Assembly: GCA_963676615.1 (NCBI GenBank)
Contig: OY781092.1
Span: 973,745 to 1,037,744 of the forward strand
Direction: 5' to 3'
Origin: Candidatus Cloacimonadota bacterium
GTDB taxonomy: Bacteria; Cloacimonadota; Cloacimonadia; G963667145
DNA: 64,000 nt
In this document: one piece after another, positions 4,319-53,476 of the stretch
Position numbering within the stretch: the first letter of the stretch is position 1
Layout: each line of letters opens with the position of its first letter
Notes under the pieces: generated by a model
Told to the model about the DNA's origin: nothing
The model's input: only the letters and a program-made list of their open reading frames with translations
Database searches by the model: none
Position numbers and translations under genes: made by a program

Positions 4319-4402
4319 ACCATAAACAAAAGGCAATGCCTACCTCGTCTCACATCGACCAGCATACGCACTGCCTTATTTTTTTTAGTTCAAATTTGAA
4401 AA

Positions 4403-4609: not shown

Positions 4610-4838
4610 CATAAGTAACATCACCCCACTTTTTGCTGTATTTTTTTCCTTTAGCAAAACCAAAACAAACTCCCTGCGTTATCGGTCAAGGAAATTGTTT
4701 GCTATTGGGGAAATTTATTTTGACGACACCGCTGGAAAATCTGCTCGACCAAATTTGAAGCTAAAAACAAACGGCACAATTTATATATTTCTTGACACTC
4801 TCCACCCAATGACAAAAAAATGCTTCATAATTTGGAAA

Positions 4839-4915
<77 letters not shown>

Positions 4916-4940
4916 TTTTTTTAAAAAGCAAATAAAAAAA

Positions 4941-4972
4941 ACAGCCACTTTTTTACGAGTGACTGTTTTTTT
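4941..4972. terminator. Putative bidirectional intrinsic terminator between the tRNA gene and the permease gene
   Basis: An imperfect 8-bp hairpin (ACAGCCAC ... GTGACTGT) is flanked by an A-run on one side and a T-run on the other. It lies between convergent genes. Confidence 0.4.
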
Positions 4973-4986
4973 GTAACTAAAAATTA

Positions 4987-24437: not shown

Positions 24438-25079
24438 TTACAAGCCTCGCGATTTTAGGCGATTAAACAAGAATTCCCAGCCAGCAGCGCTCTCGGTCGG
24501 GATATTTTCGAGCGCCAAAATGTCCCGACTTTTGTCCTCTCGGACGCCGATAACCACGCAAAACGCCTCAGTTTCAACACTGTCGAGCCGCCTCAATTTG
24601 GAATGTATGGCGTCAATCATAATAATCGGATAGTTTTTTTCTAGCGGCCTATTTCGCCAATTTGTCAACAATTCTTTGAATTCTTGGCTGATATTGCTGA
24701 TGGTCGATTTTTTGTAATTCGTGCCAAAAACATTTGCGAAAACATTCTCTATGTCTCTGGTAGACAAGCCTTTAGCATACAGCTGAAACGCCAATTCTCG
24801 TACTTCTTGCTCCTGCTTTTTCAAAATTTCCAAGATAAATGGATAAAATTGACCGAATCTGTCGCGCGGAATTTTGAATTGAATTTTGCCGCTGAGAGAT
24901 GAAAAACACCTGCTGCGATAGCCGTTGCCTTTGTTGTTTGAGCTTTTGTTTTCCGCCATAAAAGCCTGTCTTTCCAGCTTCATAAGGCTGTTAAAAACGA
25001 ACTCGATCAATTTATTCGCGCCATAATCATTGACATTTTCGTCTAAAATTTTTTGTAGTTGACTTGCGTTAAATCGCAT
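24438..25079 (-). pseudogene. IS256-family transposase, N-terminal part (split ORF)
   Basis: The sequence MRFNASQLQKIL ... AFQLYAKGLSTRDIENV ... IIMIDAIHSKLR matches the Transposase_mut pattern. The ORF terminates about 10 nt before the next ORF, which continues the same protein. Confidence 0.7.
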
Positions 25080-25184
25080 AAGAATCTCCTTTTTTGTTCT
25101 TTTTTTTATAAAAATTGGAGATTCTTTTTTTGTGTCTAGTTTTTTTTGCTGCAGACACACTTTTTTGGACAGTGCCCACATTTT

Positions 25185-25374: not shown

Positions 25375-27123
25375 TTACTCTTGTTTGCCCGATAGTTTGT
25401 TGCGTTTTTTGTAGTGCGTATGCAAATATTGGTGAGATTTGTGCGAGAGCGGCTCGCCCAAAAACTCTTTGTAAATTTTGGTAATCATCGGGTTGGTGTG
25501 CGAAGCCCTAAACTGGCAATCTTTGTCCTCTTTGTAGAGCGATTCGCCGCGTCTGGCACGGTCGGCAATGCTAGAGCCATACGGCTGTCCGCCGCCACCA
25601 ACGCATCCGCCAGGGCACGCCATTATCTCGATAAAGTGGTAAGATTTTTTACCCGACTGCACATCTTCGAGCAGCTTTTTGGCGTTGCCAAGCCCGTGCA
25701 CCACAGCCACATTCACCGTCAAAGTCGTCGAACTGTCTTTCAGCGGAATGTCCAAACTCGCTTCCTTAATTCCTTGCATTCCGCGCACAGCTTCCACCTC
25801 CATCTTGCCCAGCTCTTTGCCCGATAAAATTGCATAAGCTGTGCGAATTGCCGCTTCCATCACTCCACCTGTCGCACCAAAAATCGTCCCCGCACCTGTG
25901 TATTGTCCCATAAGCTGGTCGGCTTCCTCTTCTGGCAAATTTTTGAAATCCAAATTTGCCGCCTTTATCATCTTTACAAACTCCCGCACAGTCAGCACAC
26001 AATCGACATCCTGATAGCCAGAAGCGTTCATCTCGGGGCGCTTTGCCTCAAATTTTTTGGCTGTGCAAGGCATAATCGACACGCTGACAATATCTTTGGG
26101 GTCGATTTTCTCTTGCTCGGCAAAATAGGTCTTCACCATCGCGCCGAACATCTGTTGCGGCGATTTGCAAGTAGAAACATTATCGAGCAAATCTGGGAAA
26201 TAGGTCTCCACAAACTTCACCCAGCCAGGCGAACAAGAGGTGATAAGCGGTAAAGTTCCGCCCTCTTTTATCCGCTGAATAAGCTCCGAGCCCTCTTCCA
26301 TTATCGTCAAATCCGCAGCAAAGTTCGTATCGAAAACGCGGTCAAATCCCAGACGACGCAAAGCGGCATACATTTTGCCAACCGTCACTTTCGTCGGATC
26401 CATTCCAAACTCTTCGCCAAGAGCAGCCCGAACCGACGGCGCCTCTTGCACCACCACAATTTTGCTCGGGTCGAACAAAGCGTCTTGCACCTGCTCAATC
26501 TCACTCTTTTCCTTGAGCGCGCCCACAGGACAATACACCGTGCACTGCCCGCAGTTCACGCAAGGACTATCGGCAAGGCTCGTATCAAACGCCGCAGTCA
26601 CCTTGCTGGCAAAGCCACGACCGCTCACACAAAGAGCGTGAACTTTTTGAATATCGTTACACACCGTGATGCAACGCCCGCAATGGATGCACTTGTTGGT
26701 ATCTTTCACAATCGAAGGCCCCAAATTATCCACCTTCGCCCGCTCGAAAATCGGCTCGTAATCCGACTCGGGAATGTCCAAATAGTTGATCAGCTCCTGC
26801 AACTCGCATTTGCCGTTTTGGTCGCAAGTCGGGCATTTCACATCGTGTTCCAACAAAATCAAAGACAAGAGCTCTTTGCGAAGTTTGCGAATTTCTGGCG
26901 AATCGGTAACTATCGACATTCCGTCTGCCACAGGCGTAACACACGCCCGCTTTAGCGGACCCACACCCTCTATCTTCACCACACAAACTCCACAATTTCC
27001 AGTAGGAGTCAAATCTTTGTGATAACACAAACTCGGGATGTAATGTCCGCTCTGCTCAGCCGCTTCCATAATGGTCTGACCAGCCTTAGCCTCTACCGTT
27101 TTTCCGTTTATCGTTATTTGCAT
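25375..27123 (-). CDS. hydA: [FeFe]-hydrogenase catalytic subunit (M3-type, CpI/HydA-like)
   Basis: It has an N-terminal plant-type [2Fe-2S] domain and [4Fe-4S] motifs (CIHCGRCITVC). The H-cluster motifs are L1 SCSPGWV, L2 MPCTAKKFE and L3 EIMACPGGCVGGGGQP. Confidence 0.9.
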   Translation of the reverse strand: MQITINGKTVEAKAGQTIMEAAEQSGHYIPSLCYHKDLTPTGNCGVCVVKIEGVGPLKRACVTPVADGMSIVTDSPEIRKLRKELLSLILLEHDVKCPTCDQNGKCELQELINYLDIPESDYEPIFERAKVDNLGPSIVKDTNKCIHCGRCITVCNDIQKVHALCVSGRGFASKVTAAFDTSLADSPCVNCGQCTVYCPVGALKEKSEIEQVQDALFDPSKIVVVQEAPSVRAALGEEFGMDPTKVTVGKMYAALRRLGFDRVFDTNFAADLTIMEEGSELIQRIKEGGTLPLITSCSPGWVKFVETYFPDLLDNVSTCKSPQQMFGAMVKTYFAEQEKIDPKDIVSVSIMPCTAKKFEAKRPEMNASGYQDVDCVLTVREFVKMIKAANLDFKNLPEEEADQLMGQYTGAGTIFGATGGVMEAAIRTAYAILSGKELGKMEVEAVRGMQGIKEASLDIPLKDSSTTLTVNVAVVHGLGNAKKLLEDVQSGKKSYHFIEIMACPGGCVGGGGQPYGSSIADRARRGESLYKEDKDCQFRASHTNPMITKIYKEFLGEPLSHKSHQYLHTHYKKRNKLSGKQE

Positions 27124-27127
27124 TTTC

Positions 27128-28684
27128 TTACTCTCCTATAAACTTTTCAAATTCATCTCCAAAATATTTGACCATACTGCCAATGGGCATCGCAGGAGAT
27201 TGTCCCAGTGCGCAAAAAGAGGTTTTTTGCATCAAGCTGGAAACTTCGTCCAACCTTTTCACATCAGCGCGGCAGCCTTCTCCAGCCAATATTTTGTCTA
27301 TCAAACCAACCAAAACTTTGCAACCAATCCGACAAGAGCTACATTTTCCACAAGATTCGTGCAAAAAGAAGTTCAAAATAGAACGCAAAACTTTGAGCAT
27401 ATTTGCTTTTTCGCTCATAATCAAAATCGCCCCAGAGCCAAGCACCGCAGACTCTTTGGACAGATTTTCAAAATCGAGCTTAATCTGCAGAAGCTCCTTT
27501 GGCAAAAACATTCCCGCAGCTCCGCCAACCAAAGCGGCTTTGAACTTCTTGTCCTCTTTGAGTCCGCCGCCGTATTTAAAGATAATCTCCGACAAAGTCG
27601 TGCCCATAGGCACCTCTATCAAGCCGGGACTGTTCACATCGCCCAAAATCGTGTAAACCTTTGTTCCGCAAGAGCCAGGCGTGCCAATCTCGGCAAACTT
27701 CGCTCCGCCATTTTCCACAATCTCTGGCAAATTGGAGAGCGTCTCGACATTGTTAACCACCGTCGGTTTGCCCCAAAGTCCGCTCACGCCAGGATAAGGA
27801 GGCTTCGAGCGAGGATTACCTCTGCCGCCCTCCAGCGAATTCAAAAGCGCCGTCTCCTCACCGCAAACATAAGCACCAGCGCCAACTTTGACCATCACAT
27901 CAAAATCGAAACCGCTACCCAAAATATCTTTGCCCAAAAGCCCATACTCTCTGGCTTGCGCAATCGCTTTTTTGAGCCGATTAATGCAAAGCTTATACTC
28001 GCCACGAATGTAGATAAATCCAGTGTCCGCGCCAGCCACAAAACCCGCTATCATCATTCCCTCGAGCAGCTTGTGCGGGTCGCCTTCCATAATCAGCCGA
28101 TCCTTAAAAGTTCCCGCTTCGCCCTCGTCGGCGTTCACGACGATATACTTGTGCTTTTCGTCCAATTTGGCAGTCAGCTCCAGCTTCATTCCCGTGGGAA
28201 ATCCAGCACCGCCACGACCACGCAAATTGGAAGTTTTAATCTCTCGCAAAACCTCGTCTCTGCCCAGCTGCAAAGCTTTTCCCAAAGCTTGATAACCGTC
28301 CACGGCGATATACTCGTCGATAGATTCTGGGTCAATTTTGCCCGAATTTTTAAGCACAATTCGGTGTGAAAAAGCAAAATCAACCTCTTGTTTGGCTGGC
28401 TGACTCAAACTTTTCACAGGTCGCCCTTTAAGGAAATGTTCCAAAACAATCTGCGGAACATCCTCCACGGTGATATTGTGATACAAAAGATTATCGGGAT
28501 AAACCAGAAAATGCACGCCTTTGGACACATAGCCCAGCGTCCCTGTCTCCAGCACACCGACCTCTTTCTCCAAACCGTTTTTCGCCAGCTCGTCGCGCAT
28601 AGCCTGAATGACCGCCTTGACGCCCTTGTCCAGAGTGTGATCGTCAACTACAAAAAGAATGTGAGTTCTATAAAACATTTTCAC
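27128..28684 (-). CDS. NuoF-like flavoprotein subunit with a Cys-less N-terminal thioredoxin-like domain
   Basis: It has the FMN/NADH-site motif GRGGAGFPTGMK and the N3 [4Fe-4S] motif ESCGKCSSCRIGC. The N-terminal roughly 90 aa align with thioredoxin-like [2Fe-2S] domains but lack the Cys ligands. There is no C-terminal ferredoxin domain. Confidence 0.8.
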   Translation of the reverse strand: MKMFYRTHILFVVDDHTLDKGVKAVIQAMRDELAKNGLEKEVGVLETGTLGYVSKGVHFLVYPDNLLYHNITVEDVPQIVLEHFLKGRPVKSLSQPAKQEVDFAFSHRIVLKNSGKIDPESIDEYIAVDGYQALGKALQLGRDEVLREIKTSNLRGRGGAGFPTGMKLELTAKLDEKHKYIVVNADEGEAGTFKDRLIMEGDPHKLLEGMMIAGFVAGADTGFIYIRGEYKLCINRLKKAIAQAREYGLLGKDILGSGFDFDVMVKVGAGAYVCGEETALLNSLEGGRGNPRSKPPYPGVSGLWGKPTVVNNVETLSNLPEIVENGGAKFAEIGTPGSCGTKVYTILGDVNSPGLIEVPMGTTLSEIIFKYGGGLKEDKKFKAALVGGAAGMFLPKELLQIKLDFENLSKESAVLGSGAILIMSEKANMLKVLRSILNFFLHESCGKCSSCRIGCKVLVGLIDKILAGEGCRADVKRLDEVSSLMQKTSFCALGQSPAMPIGSMVKYFGDEFEKFIGE

Positions 28685-29108
28685 CTCCCTGCAGATTTTT
28701 GAGCAACCCCTCCAGCTTCTCTTGGGTCATATTTCCGTAAACTTTATCGTTGACCAGCACCACAGGAGCGTTACCACACACGCCCAGACACTGACAAGCT
28801 TCCAAAGTCACATCGTTCATTTTTTTGGTCTTTTTTTTCAGATAATCAAGCAAATTGTCCGAGCCCTGCACAACGCAATGAGGCGACTGACACACCTTGA
28901 TTACAAACTTTCCTCTGGATTCAAGCGCAAACATCGAATAAAAACTCGCCACAGAATACACCTGATTATAAGGCATCTTCAAATAATGTGCCACCTCTTT
29001 CAGAGCATCAACGCTCAGATGCTGCGTAGGGCTAGCGTCCTGAGCTATATGCAAAATCTGCAAAATATTCTCAGGCTTTGGTGGATATTTCGTAAAATCT
29101 GTCAACAC
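28668..29108 (-). CDS. NuoE-like [2Fe-2S] subunit (HydC/HndA-like)
   Basis: It has the thioredoxin-like [2Fe-2S] Cys pattern: CQSPHCVVQG, then CLGVCGNAP. Confidence 0.8.
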   Translation of the reverse strand: MLTDFTKYPPKPENILQILHIAQDASPTQHLSVDALKEVAHYLKMPYNQVYSVASFYSMFALESRGKFVIKVCQSPHCVVQGSDNLLDYLKKKTKKMNDVTLEACQCLGVCGNAPVVLVNDKVYGNMTQEKLEGLLKNLQGGENVL

Positions 29109-29139
29109 AACCTCCTTTTAGTTTCCACAACTTTCAACA

Positions 29140-30965
29140 TTACAATTCTTCACTAACTTCGCCTTGCCCAGGCAACTTTTTGATCGCTCCCACAGGGCAA
29201 ACCTCCATACAATTTCCGCACTTAACACAATCCGCCTGCGAAATCTCAAACTTCTCCTGGCGACTGCCGTGAATGCTGCTAACTGGGCACTTCTTCGCGC
29301 AAAGCGAGCAGCCCACACACTTGTCCTTATTTATCTGAAAATGCAAAAGATCAGGACAAACAAGCGCAGAACATTTTTTCTCATTTATATGCTCTTCATA
29401 CTCGTTTCGGAAATGTTTAATCGTTGACAACACTGGATTTGGCGCGGTCTGTCCCAAGCCGCACAAAGCGGTTTTCTTGATCACATTGCCCATTCGCTCC
29501 AGCTCTTGCAAATCTTCCATTGTCCCCTTTCCAGAAGTGATTTTTTCCAAAATATTGTGCAAATGCCGAAGTCCAATACGACACGGCGAACACTTGCCGC
29601 ACGACTCTTCCATCGTAAATTCCAAGAAAAATTTGGCAACATTCACCATACATTTGCTATCGTTCATCACAATCACGCCGCCAGAGCCCATCATCGCGCC
29701 CTCGGCAATCAGCGAATCGTAATCGATAGGCACATTCCAATGCTCTTTGGTCAGACAGCCGCCAGAAGGTCCGCCCAGCTGCACAGCCTTAAACTCGCCG
29801 CTGCTCATACCTCCGCCAACTTTATCGATAAGCTCGCCAATCGTCACGCCCATCGGCACTTCCACAAGCCCCGTATTTTTCACATCGCCCGTCAGCGCAA
29901 AAACTTTCGTGCCTTTGCTTTTTTCGGTGCCCATCGCCGCAAACCACTTGCCACCTTTTTCGATAATCGGCGGCACATTCGCCAAAGTCTCTACATTATT
30001 GATGTTCGTCGGCTTGTCCCAAAGTCCGCTAATAGCAGGAAACGGCGGTTTCGACCTCGGATGCCCTCTTCTTCCTTGAATCGACGAAATCAGAGCGGTC
30101 TCCTCTCCGCAAACAAAAGCGCCCGCTCCTGTGCGCACCTCCATATCAAAGCTAAAGCCACTGCCCAAAATATTCTCGCCCAGAAGCCCATACTCACGAG
30201 CCTTCTCAATCGCTAGCTTCACCCGCTCAATCGCCAGGGGATACTCCGCGCGGATATAAAAAAAGCCCTTCGTCGCTCCAATGGCATACGCGGCTATCAT
30301 CATCCCCTCCAGCACCTTGTGCGGATCGCCCTCCAAAACAGACCGATCCATAAAAGCGCCTGGGTCTCCCTCATCTCCGTTACAAATCAAATACTTAACG
30401 CCGTCATCGCTCTTGGCTTTTCGGGCAAATGTCCACTTCAAAAAAGTCGGGAAACCGCCACCGCCACGACCACGCAAGCCAGAAATCTCAATCTCCTTAA
30501 TCACATCCTCGGGGCTCATCGACTCCAGCACCTTCGCCAGCGAGCCGTAGCCGTCAACAGCCACATACTCTTCCAGCGACTCCGGATCGATATAACCGCA
30601 ATACTCCAGCGCAACTTCGTCTGACTCTTGTAAAACGGCACATCCTCCACATTCCGCACAACATTCTCGGCAGCCGAGCCGTCCCTCATCAAAAGCCGCT
30701 CAACCACGCGCCCTTTAACAAAATGCTCCTCGACAACCTCTTTCATATCCTCAGGTTTGAGCTGCTTATAAAAAACGCCCTCGGGATAAATCAGCATCAA
30801 AGGTCCAAAATCGCAAGGTCCCATACAGCCAGTCTCGATGATGTTAACCTCGCTCTCAATCCCAAACTCCCGCACCTGTTTTTGCAGCTCTTGCTTTATC
30901 TTTTTGGCTCCAGCAGAAACACAACCCGAGCCAAAACACAGCAAAACATCGATTCTCTTTAACAT
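29140..30965 (-). CDS. HydB-like NuoF subunit (N-terminal thioredoxin-like [2Fe-2S], NuoF core, C-terminal 2x[4Fe-4S]), interrupted by an apparent frameshift near 30620
   Basis: The track splits it into two ORFs. ORF 30516..30965 is a [2Fe-2S] thioredoxin-like domain (CFGSGC ... CMGPCDFGP). ORF 29140..30564 is the NuoF core (GRGGGGFPT ... SCGKCSPCRIG) plus CVGCSLCAKKCP ... CVKCGNCMEVCP. The NuoF reading frame continues upstream of 30564 without a stop, homologous to the paralogue, but in a different frame from the upstream ORF. The 30564 start of the track ORF is a GTG codon within this continuous frame. Confidence 0.65.
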
Positions 30966-32389: not shown

Positions 32390-33103
32390 TTAAATCGTTT
32401 TTGTCTCAAACTCATTTTTTTGTAAAGCTATTTTTAAACTTTCAAAATTCAGCTCGTCCAGACTATACTCCGTATATCTTTTCCCAAAATCTTTTCGATA
32501 ATGAGCGTCGGAATTTCGCACCAGCGGCAACCCGTATTTTTCCCATGGCGCAAAATCTCCCACAACCTCCAGCGCATCAAAATCCACATCCTGCGGCAAA
32601 AATCCCAGCTGCGACTTTGTGCTAAAGCTATCGGCGTCCACATGCGAGGCGACCAAAAAGCCGCCATACTGCGCAACTTTGGCAGAAGTCGTCTGCAAAT
32701 CCCAGCTCACCGAATTCAGCAAAAGCTTGCCCTCAAACCCAAGCACCATCTCGTTTTCGTCGATAAGCACCTGATCGCCAAAAAAACCTTTGCGATTTTG
32801 AATGTCAGGCAGCGCCCGATACAGCTCCGCATCAAAAGCCGCCGCAGTCTTGCAGTCGGGAAAATACGCCAAAAGGTGCACCTCCAAACTGGTTTGAATC
32901 TCCACGCCGTAAATAAAATGGATGCCAAATTTTTGGGCAATACTCGCATAAGCCAAAGAGTTCGCCAGACTATTATGCTCCGTGATAGAGAGCATCCCAA
33001 AGCCCAAATCTCTGGCTTTTTCAAACAAAAGCGAGGGCGACATCGAATAATCGCCACACGGCGACAAAACAGAATGCAAATGCAAATCGGCCTTGCAAAC
33101 CAT
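32390..33103 (-). CDS. PHP-domain (polymerase/histidinol-phosphatase-like) metal-dependent phosphoesterase
   Basis: It begins ADLHLHSVLSPCGD and has SITEHNSL, the PHP His-rich motifs. Confidence 0.7.
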   Translation of the reverse strand: MVCKADLHLHSVLSPCGDYSMSPSLLFEKARDLGFGMLSITEHNSLANSLAYASIAQKFGIHFIYGVEIQTSLEVHLLAYFPDCKTAAAFDAELYRALPDIQNRKGFFGDQVLIDENEMVLGFEGKLLLNSVSWDLQTTSAKVAQYGGFLVASHVDADSFSTKSQLGFLPQDVDFDALEVVGDFAPWEKYGLPLVRNSDAHYRKDFGKRYTEYSLDELNFESLKIALQKNEFETKTI

Positions 33104-34723
33104 CTATTGCACCGCCACCAACTTATACAAAATCCCCGAAATCTGAAAAGAGTTATAAGGACTGCTCACAAGCACAATCCCCTCTTCGTTTGCCTTCTCA
33201 ATCACCTCTGGCGTCGGCATCTTATTCTTGGCAAAAATTATCGCATCAATCTCCAAGAGCGACGCCACAGCAATCGAATTTTGATGCTGCATAATCGTCA
33301 CCCACACTTGGCTATCGCCAGCCGAAGCCATCACATCCGAAAGCAAATCGCCCGCATAAACGCTGCTAACTCTCACGCTCGACAAATCTTTCTCCTTCGT
33401 CAAAAGTTTGCCGCCAATATACTCAATCAACTTCGCCAAAGACATCTCTTTTTTCTCCTGCAAATTAAAAACACAATCCGAAAACTTCGCCTTTCCACTC
33501 ACAATCTCCTTCGCCAAAACCTCGCAAGTCGGACACCCGCAAATCCCGCAATTTTTACCCGGCAAAAGCTTTTTAATGTCCTCATACTTTTTCATTTTGG
33601 CGATTTTTTCTTTAATCGACAAATTATCCACCTCGCGCGGCACAGGCGTAATCTCATTTTTTATCTCGAACTCTTTGTTTTTGAACAACTTATAAAAAAG
33701 CTCTTTGTCGATTTTTTCGAACTTCACATCCGAAGAAGCGATACGATTTGCCGCAATAAACGGATTTTCCACATTCAAATCTCCGCCGACACAACCGTTG
33801 GTGCAACTGCGCAGCACCACATAATCGTAATAATCCAGCTGACCGCCCTCGATTTTGGACAAAATATCTTTCGCACCCTTAAAACCGCTAACCGCCAAAG
33901 TCTTAAAATTGCTCTCCTTCACCTGATTGCCCTCGGAAATATAAATCCCCCAATTCTCGTGATTTATAACGCCACCCGAGTTTTGCACATCCTTTTTCTC
34001 GTCCTGCTTCTGATTATAACAAATATTCATAATCCGATTGTAAACATCGCGCATCGCCAAAGCGCCGTCCTGAAAAGATTTATCTTGCCCAACAGGATTT
34101 TTGAAAGCGGTAATTTGCGACGAACACGGAGCCACCGAAAAAATTCCAATCTCGTCTGGCTTGAACCCTTTTTTTTCTGCCAAATAGTGCCGATAGTAGG
34201 CGCTCAAAATCGCCACAGAAGACTCCAGCGGCACAATATGCTCCAGCAGCGACGGGTACTTAACCCTTATCAGCCGCACAATCGCAGGACAATTCGACGA
34301 AATCAAAGGGCGAATTTTGGCATCGTTCAACTTTTGCGCAAAAATCGGCGCCATCACTCCAGTAATCATATTTTCATCGATCACCTTGTCGAAACCCAGC
34401 TGCAAAAGGGCGTCCGTCGCCACCGCATAATCGATTTTGGGCGGAAGCTGCCCGATAAAAACATTCGACAAAAGCGCCACACGATATTTAAACCTAGAAT
34501 CGTGCAAGAGCTCATCGAAATCGTCGTAAACGCTTTTGATGGCTCCCACAGGGCAAATTTTGATGCACTGTCCGCAGCTGATGCACTTGTGCTGATACAG
34601 CTCGACCTTGCCGTCGCGGAGCCTGATGGCAGACACTGGGCAAACCCGAATACACCTCGTGCAACCGATGCACTTCTCCTTATCCTCCTGCACCGAGCCG
34701 CTAAAATTCACAATATTTTCCAT
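33104..34723 (-). CDS. Sensory [FeFe]-hydrogenase-like protein (HydS/HfsB-type) with a C-terminal DRTGG-like domain
   Basis: It has an N-terminal 2x[4Fe-4S] (CIGCTRCIRVCP, CISCGQCIKICP). The H-cluster-like motifs are degenerate: SSNCPAIV (L1 with one Cys), APCSSQ (L2) and CTNGCVGG (L3). An extra CGICGCPTC motif is present. The C-terminal roughly 110 aa (AGDLLSDVMA ... VLVSSP) resemble the adjacent DRTGG protein. Confidence 0.7.
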   Translation of the reverse strand: MENIVNFSGSVQEDKEKCIGCTRCIRVCPVSAIRLRDGKVELYQHKCISCGQCIKICPVGAIKSVYDDFDELLHDSRFKYRVALLSNVFIGQLPPKIDYAVATDALLQLGFDKVIDENMITGVMAPIFAQKLNDAKIRPLISSNCPAIVRLIRVKYPSLLEHIVPLESSVAILSAYYRHYLAEKKGFKPDEIGIFSVAPCSSQITAFKNPVGQDKSFQDGALAMRDVYNRIMNICYNQKQDEKKDVQNSGGVINHENWGIYISEGNQVKESNFKTLAVSGFKGAKDILSKIEGGQLDYYDYVVLRSCTNGCVGGDLNVENPFIAANRIASSDVKFEKIDKELFYKLFKNKEFEIKNEITPVPREVDNLSIKEKIAKMKKYEDIKKLLPGKNCGICGCPTCEVLAKEIVSGKAKFSDCVFNLQEKKEMSLAKLIEYIGGKLLTKEKDLSSVRVSSVYAGDLLSDVMASAGDSQVWVTIMQHQNSIAVASLLEIDAIIFAKNKMPTPEVIEKANEEGIVLVSSPYNSFQISGILYKLVAVQ

Positions 34724-34738
34724 CTTCTACTTTTTTCC

Positions 34739-35218
34739 TTAAAAAAACACGACCAAATCTAGCTCCGTATTTCCCGCAGAATAAAGCCTCATAATATCCA
34801 CATTATCTTTGATATTCGGCAGTCCCATACCAGCACCAAAACCCATTGAACGCGCCAAATCGTCTGCCGTGGAATAGCCCGGCTGCATCGCTTTTTCGAT
34901 ATCGGCAATGCCAGGACCATTATCGACAAACCGCAGATGCACAAACTCTGGATAAATTCCCACCAGCATCTTGCCACCCTTGGAATGCGCCACCACATTT
35001 ATCTCCGCCTCATAGCTCGCCACAGCAAAACGCCGCAAAGAGCCCGTATCGATGCCCAAACTTTTCAGCTTCTTCTTAACTTTCGTCGTCGCTTTTCCCG
35101 ATTCGACAAAATCTTTGGCTTTAATCTCAAAATCGAAATTTATCGCTGGCTTATCCAGCTCGTTCAAAAAAACTTCTGGCTCAACCTGTGCATCTTTGCT
35201 AAACTCAAAACTACTCAT
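34739..35218 (-). CDS. GHKL/HATPase_c-type ATP-binding protein (anti-sigma regulatory factor-like)
   Basis: It has VDNGPGIADIEK and GFGAGMGLPNI. At 159 aa it is a second paralogue within the same locus. Confidence 0.7.
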   Translation of the reverse strand: MSSFEFSKDAQVEPEVFLNELDKPAINFDFEIKAKDFVESGKATTKVKKKLKSLGIDTGSLRRFAVASYEAEINVVAHSKGGKMLVGIYPEFVHLRFVDNGPGIADIEKAMQPGYSTADDLARSMGFGAGMGLPNIKDNVDIMRLYSAGNTELDLVVFF

Positions 35219-35576
35219 CGATACTCACCTTTATCTCAAGAGGCGCAAGACCGCCCTTATACGAAAAAGCGCAAGCCTCAAAAAGCGACATCTTCGTGCA
35301 CAAAACTGGCAAATCGTGATCTTCTGCCAGCTGCAAAATTTCCGCCGTCGGCTTCTTCCCTCGCACAAACACAACCGCTTGCATATCAACCATTTCCGCC
35401 ACTCGAATAATCTGATGATTAACAAGCCCCGTAAAAAGCACCGCCGAATCTTTCACGCACATCAAAATATCGCTAATCAAATCTGACGCCGCGCCGCAAC
35501 TCACATCATAATCCAAATGCTTGGGCGAACTCAGCAACTTGCCGTCCACCAACTCTAAAAGTTCTTTCAATTTCAT
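35211..35576 (-). CDS. DRTGG-domain protein
   Basis: A 121-aa protein with CGAASDLISDILM ... AVLFTGL ... AVVFVRGKKP, the DRTGG domain pattern. It overlaps the next gene by 8 nt. Confidence 0.6.
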   Translation of the reverse strand: MKLKELLELVDGKLLSSPKHLDYDVSCGAASDLISDILMCVKDSAVLFTGLVNHQIIRVAEMVDMQAVVFVRGKKPTAEILQLAEDHDLPVLCTKMSLFEACAFSYKGGLAPLEIKVSIDE

Positions 35577-37931
35577 CTAATGCACCCTTATATATTGCTT
35601 GAGCGCTTCCAAATCTTTCTTCAGCTGCGCCATCAACTCCGCCTGCGAAGCGAACTTTTTCTCCGCCCGCAAAAACCGCAAAAACTCCACTTTCACCTCT
35701 CGGCCGTAAATATTTTTATTAAATTTATAAAGATAATTTTCGATCGTCTTCTTCCGCTCATCGCTACGCACAGTAGGCGCAAAGCCGATATTCGTAAGGC
35801 CATAATAGCCCTTGTCGCCGATTTTGGTATGCGTGATATATACCCCTTCGGCTGGATAAATTTTGAACTCCTCTTTGGGGCTTAAATTCAAAGTCGGGAA
35901 GCCAAGACTTCCGCCAATTTTGCGACCTTTCTCCACAGTTCCCACAACCGAATAGTTCCGCGAAAGATAGCGCCTGATGCCGTTAATCTCGCCTTTTTTT
36001 ATCTTCTCTCGAATGAGTTTGCTGCAAACAATCTCGCCGCTCATAATCAAAGGATCAACCAGACGCACCTTGATGCCATAAGGCTTGCCCAGCTTCATCA
36101 AAAGCCGATAATCGCCCTCTTTGCCTTTACCAAATCTGGTGTCGTGTCCACAAACAATCTCGCGAATATGCAACTTCTCCAGCAAAATCTTCTTGAAAAA
36201 CTCCTCGGCCGTAAAATGCGCGACCTCATCAAAATCCAGATACAAAATCGAATGCACCCCAAATTTGTGAAAAAGCAAATGCTCCTTATGTTTCCGCTCC
36301 AAAATCATATACGGTTCTATCGGGCGGTTGTCCATTTTCAAAAAATGCTCCCGAGTATGAGCGCGATAAGTCAGCACCAAAGCCTCTCCGCCCGTATCCG
36401 TCGCACGAGAATACAACCTGTTCAAAAGTTTCGAATGCCCAAAATGCAACCCCTCAAAATTGCCAATGGCAACAATCGGATACTTATACCGCAAGCTCGT
36501 CTGCTGGGTAATATCCACGATGCTCCCTTTCGGTGTATAGGGAATATCCTGGCTGGCAATCACGATTTTGAACATCTTCGACAAATTCGCAAAACTTTCG
36601 ACCTTCTTAATTTCGTCAGTTGAAAACTCAATCTTTTTCAAGTTTCGGAACCTGCCCAAAAAAGTCAAATCGACAAAAGATTGCAAAAACTCTGGCGTCT
36701 CGTCGTAAAAGCTCAACCGCTCCAGCTTTGTGCAATTTTGCAATCCCGATAAGTTGGTCAAATTTTCGGCTTGTATCCGAAAAAAGTTACTATTCACCAG
36801 CTCCCGCAGCTCGCTAGAATTTGGCAAAAACAAAGAGTAGCCGTTGTCCAGCTGCACATTAAACGCTCGCTTCCACTGCGGCTCCAGATTATTCCACCAC
36901 TGCCGCAAAAGCTTTTTAGAGTCAAAAAACGACGCATTTTGAGTTGCAAAAAGTTTCCGCAATCGCAAAAATTCCCTTCGCTTTTCCTTCCGCAATCTCC
37001 ATTTTTCCCAAAATTTGAACGAAACCATACTCACTAAAATCAAAATCAGCAATCCCAAAACTCCACCAATGATTAAAATCTTAGTATTCCGCTTCTCTGT
37101 AAAAAGCGCGCTCACCCTCTGTTTTTCTGACTCCGGCAAAGTTTTGCTATCCTCAGAGAACAAAAAAACTTTCAAACTTTTAAGCTTTTCCACGCCATCC
37201 AAATTGGTTAATTTATTTTTGAAAATAAAAATCTTTTCCAAATCTTTCGCATTCTCAAGACCTTTTATGTTGGCAATCTCGTTGTTGTGCGCCAACAAAA
37301 TCTTCAACTTCGGACTGCTACTCAGCGGCTCCAGCGACGAAATATTGTTGTGATTGATCGAGAGTTCCTCCAAAAGCGGCTTGTTCGCCAACGGCTCTAT
37401 CGACGAGATAAAGTTCCGATGCACATAAACCCTCTTCAGATTTTGCAAATCCTCAAGCCCTCTCAAATCTTGCAAATCGTTAAAATCAGCCCGCAAATAC
37501 TCTAGCTTCTTCAAATTCCGCAAGCGCCACAGCGACTGAATTCGGTTGTCACTTAGCTTCAACTCTTTTAGGTTCACCAAATTTTCAATGCCGTTCAAAT
37601 CAGCAATCTGGTTGTAAGAGCAATTGACATTTTCCAAATGATCTAGCTGACTCAATCCGCTGACATCCGTGAGGTTATGCCCATACAAAAACAAAGTTTT
37701 TCGCTTCAGCAAACTTTCCAAAAACACATCTTTTGGTTTTTGCACAGTTTTTCCTAACCCCAAAACCCTATTGAACGCCAGCTTCCACTGATAATCCAGA
37801 CCGTTCCACCATATCTCCCGTTTTTCGGGGGTATCAAATTTTCGACTCATCTCCACTTTTTGAGCAGCTGCCCACAAAAACCCTTGTAAAACCACAACTA
37901 TAAATAAAATTTTCAACAATTTTTTCATCAC
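35577..37931 (-). CDS. ribF: Fusion ORF: signal peptide + leucine-rich-repeat domains with a mid-protein TM helix, fused in frame to bifunctional riboflavin kinase/FMN adenylyltransferase (RibF)
   Basis: There are about 22-residue LRR units (NLxxLxxLxLxxNxIxxL) in two blocks around the TM helix ILIIGGVLGLLILILVSMV. The C-terminal roughly 310 aa are RibF (VAIGNFEGLHFGH ... riboflavin-kinase motifs GEIVCSKLIREKI, PTLNL). The 784 codons contain no stop. A possible internal GTG start for RibF, with an AAGGGAG SD, lies at the complement of 36515-36517. Confidence 0.7.
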   Translation of the reverse strand: MMKKLLKILFIVVVLQGFLWAAAQKVEMSRKFDTPEKREIWWNGLDYQWKLAFNRVLGLGKTVQKPKDVFLESLLKRKTLFLYGHNLTDVSGLSQLDHLENVNCSYNQIADLNGIENLVNLKELKLSDNRIQSLWRLRNLKKLEYLRADFNDLQDLRGLEDLQNLKRVYVHRNFISSIEPLANKPLLEELSINHNNISSLEPLSSSPKLKILLAHNNEIANIKGLENAKDLEKIFIFKNKLTNLDGVEKLKSLKVFLFSEDSKTLPESEKQRVSALFTEKRNTKILIIGGVLGLLILILVSMVSFKFWEKWRLRKEKRREFLRLRKLFATQNASFFDSKKLLRQWWNNLEPQWKRAFNVQLDNGYSLFLPNSSELRELVNSNFFRIQAENLTNLSGLQNCTKLERLSFYDETPEFLQSFVDLTFLGRFRNLKKIEFSTDEIKKVESFANLSKMFKIVIASQDIPYTPKGSIVDITQQTSLRYKYPIVAIGNFEGLHFGHSKLLNRLYSRATDTGGEALVLTYRAHTREHFLKMDNRPIEPYMILERKHKEHLLFHKFGVHSILYLDFDEVAHFTAEEFFKKILLEKLHIREIVCGHDTRFGKGKEGDYRLLMKLGKPYGIKVRLVDPLIMSGEIVCSKLIREKIKKGEINGIRRYLSRNYSVVGTVEKGRKIGGSLGFPTLNLSPKEEFKIYPAEGVYITHTKIGDKGYYGLTNIGFAPTVRSDERKKTIENYLYKFNKNIYGREVKVEFLRFLRAEKKFASQAELMAQLKKDLEALKQYIRVH

Positions 37932-37940
37932 TTTCCCTAA

Positions 37941-38801
37941 TCAAAACACTATTTTTGGCTGAACTTTTCCTTGTTCAGTCCAAGCTACACCCACAAATTC
38001 TTCGTTGTGGTAAATTTTTGTAAAGCCATTTTTTGCTCTTTCTTCTTCCCAAAAATTGCCGTGACAAAATCTTTCAAACAGAGCGTCGTCAATCTGCAAA
38101 GCGGGAAAATCTTGCAGCAAAACATCCGCCGAAAGCACTCGGGAACGCAAAAATTCGCCACTAGTTTGCTGATCAATCTGCACGCAATCGTCTATCCCAA
38201 AACCTGCACACTCCACACGCCGCAGCGCTTGCGTCGTGCCCACGACACCCAAAAGCTGGCTAATATCCTGACTGAGCGTCCGAATATATGTCCCTTTGGA
38301 AACTTTGGCTTCGTAGCTCATGAGCCTTCCGTCAAAATCTTTTATCGTAAAATTGGAAATTTTTATCGCTCGCGGTTTCATCGCAGGGGAAGCTCCCGCT
38401 CTTGCCAAGGCGTAAGCCCTTTTGCCATCGACTTTTATCGCCGAATAAATCGGAGGAATTTGCGAGGTCATCCCCAAAACTTTTTCCGCCAAATCGGCGC
38501 TCAAACCCTTGGGCAAATCGCTGATTGCAATCACCTTGCCCGTGATGTCCGCCGTGTCAGTTTTTTGCCCGAACAAAATCGTCGCCTGATAGCGTTTGTC
38601 CTGCACCGACACGAACCTCGCAAGGCGTGTGGCTCTGCCCAGCAACACCACCAGCACGCCCGTGGCAAAATTGTCCAGCGTTCCGCAATGCCCCACTTTT
38701 TTTATGCCCAAAATTCGCCGTATTTGCGCGATAACCCCAAACGAGCTGATTCCCGCGGGTTTATCCACCAAAAGCACGCCACTCAAAGAGCTTGCCTGCA
38801 T
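37941..38801 (-). CDS. truB: tRNA pseudouridine(55) synthase
   Basis: It has GVLLVDKPAGISSF ... GHCGTLD (catalytic Asp). The start is chosen at an internal Met. Confidence 0.85.
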   Translation of the reverse strand: MQASSLSGVLLVDKPAGISSFGVIAQIRRILGIKKVGHCGTLDNFATGVLVVLLGRATRLARFVSVQDKRYQATILFGQKTDTADITGKVIAISDLPKGLSADLAEKVLGMTSQIPPIYSAIKVDGKRAYALARAGASPAMKPRAIKISNFTIKDFDGRLMSYEAKVSKGTYIRTLSQDISQLLGVVGTTQALRRVECAGFGIDDCVQIDQQTSGEFLRSRVLSADVLLQDFPALQIDDALFERFCHGNFWEEERAKNGFTKIYHNEEFVGVAWTEQGKVQPKIVF

Positions 38802-39730
38802 AGCGCCAACACTTCCTTTTCGATTTCGTGCCGCTTGCCACAAACCTCACAACCAGCAGCCAAGCGGTGACCACCTCCGCCAAATTTTTGGCAAACAGCC
38901 TGCACATCCGCCACTTTCGAGCGAAAACTGAGCTTATACACGCCCGGTTCCTTCTGCTTAAACATCACAATTATCTGATAATCGCCCAGCTGCTTGAGCC
39001 TGCTGACGGCAGACGGCAACTCCTCATACGCAAATCCAAACCGTTCCTGTAGCTCCAAATCGCTATGAGCAAACACAATTTTTCCGCTCTCAAACTCTTT
39101 CAAATCGGCATAAACCGCCGCCAAATACCGAAACTCGGAAACTTTCATCTGGCAAAAAAAATCTTCGTAAGCTTGCCCAGCGTTCAATCCAAAATCGAGC
39201 AACGCCGCACAAACCGCAAAACATTCAGCGTCCACATTCCGATTCTGAAAACCGTCTGTGTCGCCCAAAATCGTATAGTAAATCGCCCGCGCAAACCTCG
39301 CCCGCTCCGTCTGCGGCAAAGCTTCGACCAACTTCTGACAATGCCGAAAAATCAAAATCCCAGCGCTGGCGGCACAAGGCTCAATAATCTCCTGCGCAGT
39401 CGGCAATTTGTCCGCGCCAACTTGATGATGATCGATCACAAAAATCTCTTTGTCGAAATCGCCGACAAACTTTTCCCACTTGCCAAGGCGCGACTTTTGG
39501 TGCGCATCCACCACCACCAAAGCGTCGAAATTGCAGGAGCTGATATCCACCTGCTCATAGCCAAACTCCAAAAACGCCAAACTTTGCGGCGGAGCCTCCA
39601 GCATCACCTTCGCCTTGCTTTTGCCCAGCACCATCTGCAAAGCAAAACAAGAGCCCAAAGCGTCCGCATCTGGATTTTGATGCGTAAATATCCCTATTTG
39701 CTTATATTTCAACAGATTATCGACAATCAT
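38783..39730 (-). CDS. nrnA: Bifunctional oligoribonuclease / pAp phosphatase NrnA (DHH-DHHA1)
   Basis: It has the DHH motifs HQNPDADALGS and DHH, and a DHHA1 GGGH near the C-terminus. The start is chosen at an internal Met. Confidence 0.8.
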   Translation of the reverse strand: MIVDNLLKYKQIGIFTHQNPDADALGSCFALQMVLGKSKAKVMLEAPPQSLAFLEFGYEQVDISSCNFDALVVVDAHQKSRLGKWEKFVGDFDKEIFVIDHHQVGADKLPTAQEIIEPCAASAGILIFRHCQKLVEALPQTERARFARAIYYTILGDTDGFQNRNVDAECFAVCAALLDFGLNAGQAYEDFFCQMKVSEFRYLAAVYADLKEFESGKIVFAHSDLELQERFGFAYEELPSAVSRLKQLGDYQIIVMFKQKEPGVYKLSFRSKVADVQAVCQKFGGGGHRLAAGCEVCGKRHEIEKEVLALCRQAL

Positions 39731-43747: not shown

Positions 43748-44353
43748 ATGGTCGAAATCATCGCCTGGACGACAGAACACGCCATCGAAATCTTTGCGGC
43801 ACTCAGTGGCATACTTTTTTTGTATTTGGAAATTAAAGAAAATATTTGGCTCTGGCCGATTGGCATAATCTCCTCAGCTTTATACATTTATGTCTATTTC
43901 GACAGCAAATTTTACGCCGATATGGGCTTGCAAGTTTACTATCTGCTGATCAGCGTTTACGGCTGGATTTTGTGGTTCAAAGGCGCCGAAACCTCCAAAA
44001 ACGACCATCTGCCCATCGTCAAAGCGACCAAAACACAAGCCGTTTGGCTCACTGTCGCCTCGATTTTCACCTTCGTCCTCATAAAATGGATTTTGGTCAA
44101 ATTCACCGACTCGCCAGTGCCGACAGGCGACGCCATAACCACCGCTCTATCAATCGTTGCCACCTGGATGCTCGCCAAAAAAATCATCGAGCAATGGTGG
44201 ATTTGGATTTTCGTCAACCTCCTGTCGCTGGGGCTATATCTATACAAAGGGCTCTATCCGACCTCGGTCTTGTTCGTTTTTTACACGCTGGGCGCAGTCG
44301 TCGGTTACTTCCAATGGAAAAAAAGTTTCGCGCATCAGGTAAGTGATGAATAA
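43748..44353 (+). CDS. PnuC-family transporter (likely a thiamine-type PnuT, given the neighbouring gene)
   Basis: It has PnuC-like repeats with conserved Trp residues (W ... WLWPIG ... YGWILW). Its stop overlaps the TPK gene. Confidence 0.7.
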   Translation: MVEIIAWTTEHAIEIFAALSGILFLYLEIKENIWLWPIGIISSALYIYVYFDSKFYADMGLQVYYLLISVYGWILWFKGAETSKNDHLPIVKATKTQAVWLTVASIFTFVLIKWILVKFTDSPVPTGDAITTALSIVATWMLAKKIIEQWWIWIFVNLLSLGLYLYKGLYPTSVLFVFYTLGAVVGYFQWKKSFAHQVSDE

Positions 44354-44966
44354 ACAAGCAGTTATCGTTGCCGACGGAGAATTTCCGACTCACAAAATTC
44401 CCCTAGAAGCAATCAAAGCAGCAAAATTCCTCGTCTGCTGCGACGGCGCAATAAACCAGCTAGACGCCAGAAAAATTGTCCCCGATTTAATCGTCGGGGA
44501 TTTAGACTCGGCAGACCCAAAATTGCTCGACAAATACAAAACAAAAACTTGCAAAAGCGACTGCCAAGACACAAACGACCTAACCAAAGCGGTGAACTGG
44601 CTATTGGACAAAAATTTTGAGGAAATCGTCATCGTCGGCGCTTGCGGAAAGCGCGAAGACCACACCTTGGGCAACTTCTCGCTCCTGTTCGACTATTGCC
44701 AAAAAATCAAAGTGAGTATGCTCACCGACCACGGCAAATTCTCCACCGCCACCAAATCTACCACATTCGAGAGCTTCGCAGGGCAACAGGTCAGCATCTT
44801 TTCCATAAACCAAACGCTGAAAATCACATCCGAAAACCTAAAATATCCGCTGCGAAAAACCGCACTTTCCTCACTTTGGTGCGGCACACTCAACGAATCC
44901 ACCGCAGAAAATTTCACCCTCTTATTCGATGAGAGCGGTCAAATCGTGGTGTATCAGCTGTTTTAG
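44346..44966 (+). CDS. Thiamine pyrophosphokinase
   Basis: It begins AVIVADGEF, then CCDGAIN, then LIVGDLDS (the TPK catalytic motif), with a C-terminal thiamine-binding beta domain. Confidence 0.75.
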   Translation: MNKQAVIVADGEFPTHKIPLEAIKAAKFLVCCDGAINQLDARKIVPDLIVGDLDSADPKLLDKYKTKTCKSDCQDTNDLTKAVNWLLDKNFEEIVIVGACGKREDHTLGNFSLLFDYCQKIKVSMLTDHGKFSTATKSTTFESFAGQQVSIFSINQTLKITSENLKYPLRKTALSSLWCGTLNESTAENFTLLFDESGQIVVYQLF

Positions 44967-50366: not shown

Positions 50367-51272
50367 TGCAATCCTCCTGCTTTTCCAAACAAAATTTCTT
50401 CACATTAAAACTTTCGTCTCTTCATTTCTGTCAAGAGTTGTTTTGGCGCTACAAGAGAATTTCTCCCAAAAGCGTTACTTTTATTCAGCATTTTTTTATT
50501 GGTCTTGACACAAATAGAGAAATTTATCGAATTGGGAAAAGGTTAGAAAAGGGAATAAATGGACAAAATGTTGGATATAACACCAAATTGGAAGGCTAAA
50601 CGATATGTGGAGTTTGGTTAGTTGTGATAAAACATTTAAGGAGACTGACATAACTATGAATGGATTCCAAAGACCTGCACCAAAAACGAGAGATTCAATA
50701 AAAAATTTTTGCAAATCAATAGATTGTGAAGTTGGGGCACAAACAATTAATAGCATAATAGAATAATCAGACCTAATTTAGTGATTTTTGTGTCAAAATT
50801 TTCTTGGGACAAATTAAGGTGCAAAATTCCAAAATCAGAATTAAAGGTGAAATATGACTTTGTTTGTCATCCAGGAACAGGCGGTCTTTATTGGCATAAT
50901 AAGAATTATAATCACGGTGTGAAAAAATTTAAATCATTATATAGAAGAGAAAATAATAAAGCCCTCAAATAACATTTTGTATAAGTAATGGCAAGCAATG
51001 TGGTAAATATTAAGGCTTGTAGCCCGATCAAACTACGTAGCGGTTTAATAGGTTTGCTCTCCGAAATGCCAAACATTTCATATACTCACCGTTAGGCATA
51101 AGCTAAAAAAAACAGCGAATATAAAATATAAACTAAGAATTATTAAAAAAATCAATGCACAAACACACATTTAGTTTTGCCGACCAGAAAACCAAACCCT
51201 GAAAAACCCAAAGAGCTATTTTTTAGCCAGCGCACGAAAAATAATTATAAATTTGTAATTAAAGAGTTTAAA

Positions 51273-53465: not shown

Positions 53466-53476
53466 ACAGTATTTAT

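Follow-up and report, generated by a model that had tools for sequence, protein, structure and literature searches.

A leucine-rich repeat protein fused in frame to riboflavin kinase/FAD synthetase in Cloacimonadota, a predicted membrane-anchored RibF

In a small group of Cloacimonadota, a single open reading frame joins a leucine-rich repeat (LRR) membrane protein to a complete bifunctional riboflavin kinase/FAD synthetase (RibF). We consider it about 75% probable that the gene is expressed as one polypeptide, a type I single-pass inner-membrane protein whose cytoplasmic domain would be the housekeeping RibF. RibF is the essential enzyme that converts riboflavin to FMN and FAD and is a proposed antibacterial target, and the known RibF enzymes are soluble proteins of ~270–340 amino acids. 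The initial annotation of this DNA offered two explanations for the arrangement, either that a membrane or surface scaffold tethers RibF or that the enzyme is made separately from an internal start codon, with the LRR protein reading through for lack of a stop. The first of these is supported by the single frame, by its unchanged length and its place after truB in seven lineages at 41–70% identity, and by purifying selection.

The ORF lies on the minus strand at 35577–37931 of the window, by which we mean the whole 64,000-nucleotide stretch analysed, and comprises 784 codons from a GTG to the TAG stop at 35577–35579. The true start is likely the ATG at 37926–37928, one codon after the GTG, because all orthologues begin with MK, MR or MN at this point; the exact 783-residue product is already present in a sequence record. 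No Shine-Dalgarno sequence precedes the start in any of the six genomes compared, and even a 4-mer match to one is found at only 13 of the 60 genes in the window. The order of parts is a signal peptide, a capped nine-repeat LRR domain, a transmembrane (TM) helix with a basic stretch, then a second, degenerate LRR-like domain with its own cap, and a complete RibF. Domain profiles, hydropathy and orthologues uphold the composition given in the initial annotation. Against Pfam, the whole ORF matches LRR_4 in four stretches (E = 2.4e-25, 88.4 bits against a cutoff of 27), FAD_syn at residues 486–638 (E = 4.6e-33, 114.7 bits, cutoff 27) and Flavokinase at residues 656–780 (E = 1.8e-36, 125.5 bits, cutoff 19.6). 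The full-length AlphaFold2 (AF2) model has a pLDDT of 86.7, with nine strands at a 22-residue period and a long helix at 266–328.

The predicted signal peptide, MKKLLKILFIVVVLQGFLWAAA (37863–37928, minus strand), combines a basic n-region and a hydrophobic core with small residues ahead of Gln24, and is modelled as a helix at residues 2–22. Residues 1–25 are hydrophobic in all six orthologues; the Kyte-Doolittle peak passes the 1.6 threshold in five, and the sixth is similar in sequence type. The predicted TM helix, TKILIIGGVLGLLILILVSMVSF (37017–37085, minus strand; residues 283–305), reaches a hydropathy of 3.04 over 19 residues and falls inside the AF2 helix at 266–328, and an equivalent hydrophobic segment (~283–305) was found in six of six orthologues and also in P0227, a more distant homologue. 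It is followed by a basic juxtamembrane stretch, KFWEKWRLRKEKRREFLRLRKLF (36927–37016, minus strand), that holds the motif EFLRL.KLF, invariant across the core clade. Ten Lys/Arg and two Asp/Glu occur in the 25 residues past the TM helix, with 8–11 Lys/Arg across the orthologues, and by the positive-inside rule this basic stretch places the C-terminal part in the cytoplasm. In some orthologues, L001 and L002 among them (net +5), the residues ahead of the TM helix are fairly basic too, and we regard the positive-inside argument for a cytoplasmic RibF as good but not decisive. The signal peptide and topology assignments are drawn from hydropathy and charge distribution rather than from dedicated predictors. 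A RibF facing the periplasm was rejected in view of its need for ATP, the signal peptide and the basic stretch past the TM helix. With hydropathy and charge read in all orthologues, and with the order of domains, the predicted topology is that of a signal peptide, an LRR ectodomain, a single TM helix and a cytoplasmic effector.

The outer LRR domain has an N-terminal cap (37707–37862, minus strand) that holds the lead-in motif WWNGLDYQWKLAFN at 37770–37811 and is modelled as helices at 34–43, 46–55 and 67–74. Nine internalin-type repeats of 22 residues follow (37134–37706, minus strand; residues 76–266), predicted to lie in the periplasm, with strands every 22 residues from 78 to 257 at a pLDDT of ~90–97. 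Internalin A (2omz) matches this outer LRR domain at E = 3.8e-47, and InlC2 superposes on it with a TM score of 0.80 (Foldseek). In repeats 2–4 the variable positions of the concave face are conserved at 0.89–1.00, against 0.69–0.73 for the convex face; over all repeats the difference is a modest one, drawn from six or seven related sequences (p = 0.03 for the core clade alone; p = 0.06 once P0227 is added). We infer from this pattern that the concave face of repeats 2–4 is where the outer LRR domain docks a conserved partner in the periplasm or envelope. The same concave patch is the only hint of ligand control of the cytoplasmic domain.

A second cap and a degenerate LRR-like domain of ~4 rungs lie past the TM helix (36522–36926, minus strand; residues 336–470), with the other copy of the lead-in motif, WWNNLEPQWKRAFN, at 36858–36899. 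The duplication of this motif had been pointed out from the sequence, and both copies were located; the window holds no third. The inner domain is a true but degenerate paralogue of the outer cap and repeats (BLASTP E = 8e-13, 28% identity over 138 amino acids), scoring 14.7 bits with LRR_4 against the Pfam cutoff of 27, and AF2 places its strands at 382–386, 404–408, 432–435 and 454–457. Modelled alone, the cytosolic part gives a pLDDT of 93.2 and a pTM of 0.88, with five of five models at 91–93, and this agreement predicts that the inner domain and RibF are held in a fixed mutual orientation. On these models the inner LRR-like domain would be a rigid adaptor packed on RibF.

The RibF part consists of an FMN adenylyltransferase (FMNAT) module (36012–36482, minus strand; residues 484–640), with GNFEGLHFGH at 36435–36464, and a riboflavin kinase (RFK) module (35580–35966, minus strand; residues 656–784), with PTLN at 35886–35897 and Glu731. 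The two-module RibF fold is present. The NCBIfam ribF model TIGR00083 is passed narrowly, at 185.1 bits against a cutoff of 184.35, and NF004162 falls just short (240.2 against 241). In an alignment of 63–65 RibF sequences, the residues of the (H/T)xGH and SxxxR motifs (His496, His499, Ser637 and Arg641), like PTLN 679–682 and Glu731, occupy invariant or nearly invariant columns; the roles of the motifs are those established for the FAD synthetase of Corynebacterium ammoniagenes. As judged from these residues, the RibF part is catalytically intact. Its identity to RibF proteins beyond its own small clade does not exceed 42%, and no second RibF was found within the 64-kb window.

The same ORF of 783 or 784 codons is found at 58–70% identity in five closed Cloacimonadota chromosomes of ~1.55 Mb, namely OZ245797, OY781061, OY762943, OY762940 and OZ223280, and the six orthologues, all 783 or 784 amino acids long, differ by one single-residue indel. 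Four of the proteins retrieved (P0002, P0003, P0005 and P0006), each of 784 amino acids, come from closed Cloacimonadota chromosomes of 1.54–1.59 Mb, and P0227, with 776 amino acids and 41% identity in an end-to-end alignment, adds a further lineage with the fusion. Synonymous sites are saturated across the fusion (pS 0.6–0.85; 0.70–0.85 in the outer LRR), and pN is 0.07–0.27 in the LRR domain, 0.08–0.32 in the adaptor, 0.05–0.18 in FMNAT and 0.06–0.23 in RFK, values that indicate purifying selection on every folded domain. The fusion is confined to a narrow clade, forming two clusters among 1.84 billion representative proteins, and an alignment-based scan of metagenome contigs found no relative. 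Two apparent variants proved spurious: P0001, a seeming truB-LRR-RibF protein of 726 amino acids, derives from a palindromic contig, and P0107, a seemingly short RibF of 419 amino acids, is only part of a protein, its contig being frameshifted and matching L003 collinearly over the full 2355 nucleotides.

Directly upstream of the fusion lies truB (37941–38843, minus strand; TIGR00431, E = 6.8e-60), directly after which ribF is usually located, and the order DHH-truB-fusion recurs in L006 and L009. In a related lineage, L010, the order is DHH-truB-ribF with an unfused RibF of 377 amino acids, 49% identical, and five more identical genes upstream. Since this unfused gene occupies the same syntenic slot, the fusion appears to replace the housekeeping gene. 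The possibility that the fused gene is a paralogue beside a normal ribF was rejected at this locus, where the fusion itself fills the slot after truB. The genes downstream differ, a hydrogenase cluster in the core clade and moeA and mreB in L009, so gene context points to no functional partner.

Compared with the known bifunctional RibF proteins, or type I FAD synthetases, of C. ammoniagenes (2x0k), Thermotoga maritima (1mrz) and Streptococcus pneumoniae (3op1), the fusion carries ~480 extra N-terminal residues, namely the signal peptide, LRR domain, TM helix and LRR-like adaptor. In sequence and predicted fold its repeats strongly resemble those of Listeria InlA, InlB and InlC2 and of the Chlorobium Roco LRR, with 22-residue repeats and an N-terminal helical cap. 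Unlike internalins, it is without an inter-repeat Ig-like domain, an LPXTG motif or a GW anchor, and its cap is of the WWxxLxxxWKxxF type rather than the internalin type. The NCBIfam models internalin_A, internalin_H and internalin_J score 27–76 bits against cutoffs of 1050–1700, which falls well below full internalin membership; the likeness is confined to the LRR repeats. The only matches outside the fusions that cover ~50–64% of the query are multi-module LRR proteins of Bacteroidota (P0043 from Mongoliitalea, P0058 from Cecembia, P0025 and P0029), in which WWxxLxxxWKxxF likewise heads LRR modules, each one of them in P0043, P0029 and P0025. These are secreted three-module proteins of ~820–850 amino acids whose N-terminal domain is different and which have neither a TM helix nor an enzyme domain. 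Their source names read only "leucine-rich repeat domain-containing protein".

In the mechanism that we propose, the Sec pathway would export the first LRR domain to the periplasm of an organism that is presumably diderm, given the presence of lipid A genes, and the TM helix would act as a stop-transfer anchor. RibF would then use ATP and riboflavin on the cytoplasmic side of the membrane, with the inner LRR-like domain serving as its rigid adaptor, and a partner held by the concave face of repeats 2–4 could position or modulate the enzyme. FMN and FAD synthesis would in this way be local to riboflavin entry, trapping the imported vitamin, and/or to the assembly of membrane flavoproteins. Local coupling of this kind is our preferred rationale for tethering, put forward tentatively and by analogy for a small, uncultured clade. 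The proposed logic of keeping a kinase at the site of vitamin entry is shared with the pairs PnuT-thiamin pyrophosphokinase, PnuC-NadR and PnuX/RibM with RibF, although in the known trapping pairs the kinase is a separate soluble protein. Within the window, genes for a PnuC-family transporter and for thiamin pyrophosphokinase overlap one another at 43748–44966, and a facilitator of this sort with a kinase is a classical metabolic trapping pair (PMC5749112). No riboflavin transporter was identified near the fusion gene, so that the link to trapping stands as analogy, and a scan of the window with Rfam turned up neither an FMN nor a TPP riboswitch.

A second, doubtful reading of the same polypeptide is that it is a receptor-type enzyme, in which a periplasmic ligand or partner on the outer LRR domain would alter how the TM helix and adaptor are oriented or oligomerise and so switch FMN/FAD synthesis on or off. 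Plant LRR receptor kinases and Toll-like receptors have the same order of parts, from signal peptide through capped LRR, TM helix and basic juxtamembrane stretch to effector. Here the effector is a kinase/adenylyltransferase that works on small molecules and is related neither to protein kinases nor to TIR domains, and the likeness is one of layout only. If this reading were true, the protein would be a bacterial LRR receptor with cofactor synthesis, not protein phosphorylation, as its output.

A tethered RibF also has to be set against the proposal of two products from one ORF, in which free RibF would arise from an internal start and the read-through protein would be a by-product or serve as an LRR membrane protein only. 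The initial annotation had named an internal GTG after an AAGGGAG sequence. Both exist on the minus strand (36516–36529), with AAGGGAG at 36523–36529, but the GTG, encoding Val472, lies at 36516–36518 rather than at 36515–36517, and only 4 nucleotides separate the two. Codon 472 is GTG in the window, GTC in L001 and ATT in L002–L005. AAGGGAG spells codons of a conserved Lys-Gly-Ser, and the string occurs only in the window and L001, being missing from four of the five orthologues. We judge the site to be ordinary coding sequence (Lys-Gly-Ser-Ile-Val) rather than a start. Initiation without a Shine-Dalgarno sequence is frequent in organisms of this superphylum, which would leave room for internal starts, and Val487 is GTG in five orthologues, where initiation would give an N-terminus like that of the Thermotoga RibF (the alignment with 1mrz begins at residue 486). 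The window itself, however, has GTT as codon 487, and Met453 is replaced by Gln or Lys in L003 and L004; at no alignment column across residues 430–495 do all six core-clade sequences have a start codon. Minus-strand promoter-like sites between the TM helix and RibF were likewise not found, counts being at chance level. Nor would a separate RibF be expected where the adaptor is predicted to pack rigidly on it (pTM 0.88) and is as constrained as RibF itself. Separate production from an internal start therefore seems to us improbable.

A single translation product could still be divided afterwards, if a protease were to free soluble RibF, with or without the adaptor, and tethering were transient. 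The basic juxtamembrane helix at 306–335 has the lowest AF2 confidence of the model (pLDDT 51–61) and would be accessible to cleavage. No conserved motif resembling a protease site is evident, the invariance of EFLRL.KLF in the core clade fits a structural role, and the exact conservation of length points to a functional whole; we hold cleavage to be unlikely. That a sequencing or assembly error deleted a stop or joined two genes can practically be dismissed: faulty public contigs of the locus do exist (a palindromic chimera in L008, many frameshifts in L007), but L007 is broken within its LRR and adaptor regions rather than at the LRR/RibF boundary, and the frame is uninterrupted in six independent closed or long assemblies (58–100% identity) and in one at 41%. 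The comparison of orthologous loci called for at the outset thus gave an uninterrupted single frame throughout, and the suggestion of a lost stop codon fell with it, as the parts are not separated by a stop in any orthologue.

The remark that LRR-RibF fusions were not known agrees with our own search: nothing relevant was found in the literature on LRR/TM/RibF fusions or on riboflavin metabolism in Cloacimonadota, and these proteins carry no source name. We know of no characterised bacterial RibF that is other than soluble, and found no published one that is an integral membrane protein or bears a protein-binding ectodomain. The fusion provides a first link to an enzyme for LRR modules with the WWxxLxxxWKxxF cap, which are uncharacterised and common in Bacteroidota, and a single protein is here predicted to have modules of this type folded on either side of the membrane. 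That the only apparent RibF of these bacteria is predicted to be membrane-anchored suggests that the site of FMN and FAD synthesis can matter, and gives a natural setting in which to ask whether flavin cofactors are made in step with vitamin import, with flavoprotein assembly at the membrane or with an outside signal.

The minus-strand stretch 35577..37931 holds one long ORF only, of 784 codons from a GTG. The codon after this GTG is a Met, and because all orthologues begin with that residue the true start is probably the ATG at 37926-37928, giving a protein of 783 aa. The product matches LRR_4 (Pfam, E=2.4e-25), FAD_syn at residues 486-638 (E=4.6e-33) and Flavokinase at residues 656-780 (E=1.8e-36), scores 185.1 bits with the NCBIfam ribF equivalog TIGR00083 (cutoff 184.35), and has hydrophobic segments at residues 1-25 and ~283-305 by hydropathy, all of which bears out the initial annotation of a single frame with LRR, transmembrane and RibF parts. 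The duplicated W(W)NxLxxQWKxAFN lead-in that it described lies at 37770-37811 and 36858-36899, with no third WWNxLxxQWKxAFN copy in the 64-kb window.

The same ORF is found in five closed Cloacimonadota/Cloacimonadales chromosomes (1.54-1.59 Mb) at 58-71% identity, and the protein encoded in the window itself is recorded on a contig of 1.57 Mb. The six coding sequences have 783 or 784 codons, with a single one-residue indel in their alignment and saturated synonymous sites (pS 0.6-0.85), while pN is 0.07-0.27 in the outer LRR, 0.08-0.32 in the adaptor (the inner cap and degenerate LRR-like domain), 0.05-0.18 in the FMNAT module and 0.06-0.23 in the kinase module. Faster evolution is confined to the signal peptide and transmembrane helix, where hydrophobicity is expected to be the main constraint. 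When 1.84 billion representative proteins were searched exhaustively with HMMER, just two full-length fusion clusters came back, one represented by the core-clade protein P0002 and the other being P0227, a diverged fusion of 776 aa that is 41% identical, aligns over residues 7 to 783 and has the same signal peptide, caps, transmembrane helix and RibF.

The initial annotation proposed that RibF might be translated separately from a GTG inside the ORF. This GTG exists, one base from the position first assigned, as codon 472 (36516-36518), and a Shine-Dalgarno-like AAGGGAG (36523-36529) stands 4 nt from it; the codon, however, is GTG in the window only, the orthologous locus L001 having GTC and the four remaining ones ATT, and AAGGGAG, intact in the window and L001 only, is made of the AAA-GGG-AGC codons of a conserved Lys-Gly-Ser. 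Met453 is missing from L003, L004 and P0227, and Val487 reads GTT in the window, against GTG in five orthologues. The Shine-Dalgarno argument weighs little here, because in none of the six genomes does the fusion gene's own start have such a sequence, and just 13 of the 60 window genes match even a 4-mer. Promoter-like and terminator-like matches stayed at chance level, and on the coding strand none lay ahead of the RibF part. We consider a separate RibF improbable. A lost stop codon, also raised initially, is excluded by comparison of orthologous loci, and so is a misassembly, since the ORF is uninterrupted in the five closed chromosomes and in P0227.

Two seemingly contradictory database entries, P0001 and P0107, are artefacts of public contigs. 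The 8-kb contig L008 (ENA ERZ25074360 ctg17178_13x_l) is a palindromic long-read assembly chimera, in which the fusion locus (1821-3656 (-) and 4088-6268 (+)) and the genes downstream of it stand twice in opposite orientations; the odd 726-aa P0001 and 611-aa P0378 both derive from it. P0107 comes from contig L007 (ENA ERZ21831251 ctg8094l), whose fusion gene at 594-2954 is collinear with its L003 counterpart along the full 2355 nt (84% identity with 38 gaps) but has two frame shifts (frame 1 to 2 to 3), and is split by gene callers into ORFs of 92, 227 and 419 aa; the breaks probably reflect indel errors, although the gene may instead be a pseudogene.

The full-length AlphaFold2 model (63-sequence alignment; mean pLDDT 86.7) begins with the signal peptide as a helix (residues 2-22), followed by three outer cap helices, nine beta-strands at an exact 22-residue spacing (78-257), a long helix including the transmembrane segment (266-328), three further cap helices, four more rungs (382-457) and RibF. 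The outer LRR, which matches InlA 2omz (E=3.8e-47) and InlC2 (Foldseek, TM-score 0.80), is of internalin type. It is no internalin itself, since with the NCBIfam internalin models it stays far under the cutoffs. The domain behind the membrane segment duplicates the outer cap and first repeats in diverged form (BLASTP E=8e-13) and now falls below the Pfam LRR threshold in a profile search. When the cytoplasmic part (306-784) was modelled alone, each of the five models gave pLDDT 93.2 and pTM 0.88, which predicts that RibF and the inner LRR-like domain form one rigid unit. In four of six orthologues the transmembrane helix (283-305; 37017-37085) contains small-residue motifs of the GG(x)2-3G type (IIGGVLG, SIGGLILLLGGG, FGGGLL in L002 and IGGGLL in L005), in place of which L003 and L004 have Ser/Ala; such motifs might point to dimerisation through this helix.

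In the core clade the gene order is lipid A acyltransferase, unknown gene, GTPase, M23 peptidase, Sua5/YrdC, DHH phosphoesterase, truB, fusion; the P0227 lineage (locus L009) has DHH, truB, fusion; and at locus L010 the same seven upstream genes precede an unfused 377-aa RibF, P0239, 48-52% identical to the fusions in the RibF part. Core-clade proteins share 68-89% identity in this part; comparisons among the core clade, P0227 and P0239 give ~50%, and those with any other RibF <=42%. The fusion therefore occupies, in a narrow lineage, the truB-ribF slot that is ancestral. P0239 aligns with the fusions from ~22 residues ahead of where a canonical RibF starts, over a conserved KGSI(I/V)D strand. 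In another lineage P0288 (565 aa) joins a TruB N-terminal part to RibF (242-556), a different fusion from the same neighbourhood.

Directly after the ribF stop (TAG, then ATG at once), 32390-35576 (-) encodes a DRTGG-like protein (121 aa), a HATPase/anti-sigma-like protein (159 aa), a [FeFe]-hydrogenase-like protein with extra Fe-S domains, perhaps of sensory type (539 aa), and a PHP-domain protein, a set also behind the fusion in L006 and L007, not in L009. The FMN-dependent hydrogenase cluster downstream in the core clade is not counted as a partner because it is not beside the fusion in L009. A 753-codon ORF at 32501-34762 (+), antisense to the 539-aa gene, would encode a low-complexity protein with much Arg, His, Gln and Ile, and is almost certainly no gene but a shadow ORF. 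Elsewhere in the window, a truncated Mutator-family transposase (24438-25181 (-); profile positions 11-223 of 379) adjoins HydABC-type hydrogenase genes (25375-30564 (-); a HydA-like protein, 582 aa, and two NuoF-like subunits that bind FMN, 518 and 474 aa), and a HerA-like ATPase (DUF87), NurA nuclease and DNA methylase-like gene in a row (51177-55989 (+)) may form a DNA end-processing or defence-related module.

Sequence comparisons establish the parts, their order and conservation, and the intact catalytic residues of RibF. By established rules, the signal peptide would direct export of the first LRR domain through the inner membrane, transfer would stop at the hydrophobic helix, and the 8-11 Lys/Arg behind it would keep the remainder in the cytoplasm, where ATP, a RibF substrate, is located. 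The lipid A acyltransferase gene suggests an outer membrane, in which case the outer LRR would be periplasmic. Concave-face variable residues of LRR repeats 2-4 are almost invariant (0.89-1.00 vs 0.69-0.73 on the convex face; over all repeats p=0.03, or p=0.06 with P0227 added), which suggests, more weakly, a conserved binding partner. Speculatively, tethering would place FMN/FAD synthesis at the membrane, trapping imported riboflavin or serving membrane flavoproteins. The fusion-bearing genomes are small (~1.55 Mb). In the window a PnuC-family vitamin facilitator gene (43748-44353 (+); NMN_transporter E=1.6e-56) overlaps a thiamin pyrophosphokinase gene (44343-44966 (+)) by 11 nt, with no TPP riboswitch upstream in Rfam; the two form a salvage and trapping pair of the PnuT-TPK type, and the genome does apply to thiamine the facilitator-plus-kinase trapping logic known for vitamins (PMC5749112).

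The C-terminal part belongs to the bifunctional RibF family, with all testable features present. The WWxxLxxxWKxxF cap is not confined to the fusion, because it heads every LRR module of the Bacteroidota proteins P0043, P0029 and P0025 (~820-850 aa). LRR receptors resemble the fusion in predicted layout alone, its effector being unrelated to theirs. No PDB chain covers both halves, the source records give these proteins no name, and our literature search found no description of such a fusion, in agreement with the initial view that LRR-RibF fusions were undescribed. Limited to a small uncultured clade, and with a biological purpose that we infer, the fusion is nevertheless clearly real, and it is an unusual form for an essential cofactor enzyme to take: a known enzyme would here be built into a conserved architecture that is new, anchored in the membrane and receptor-like.
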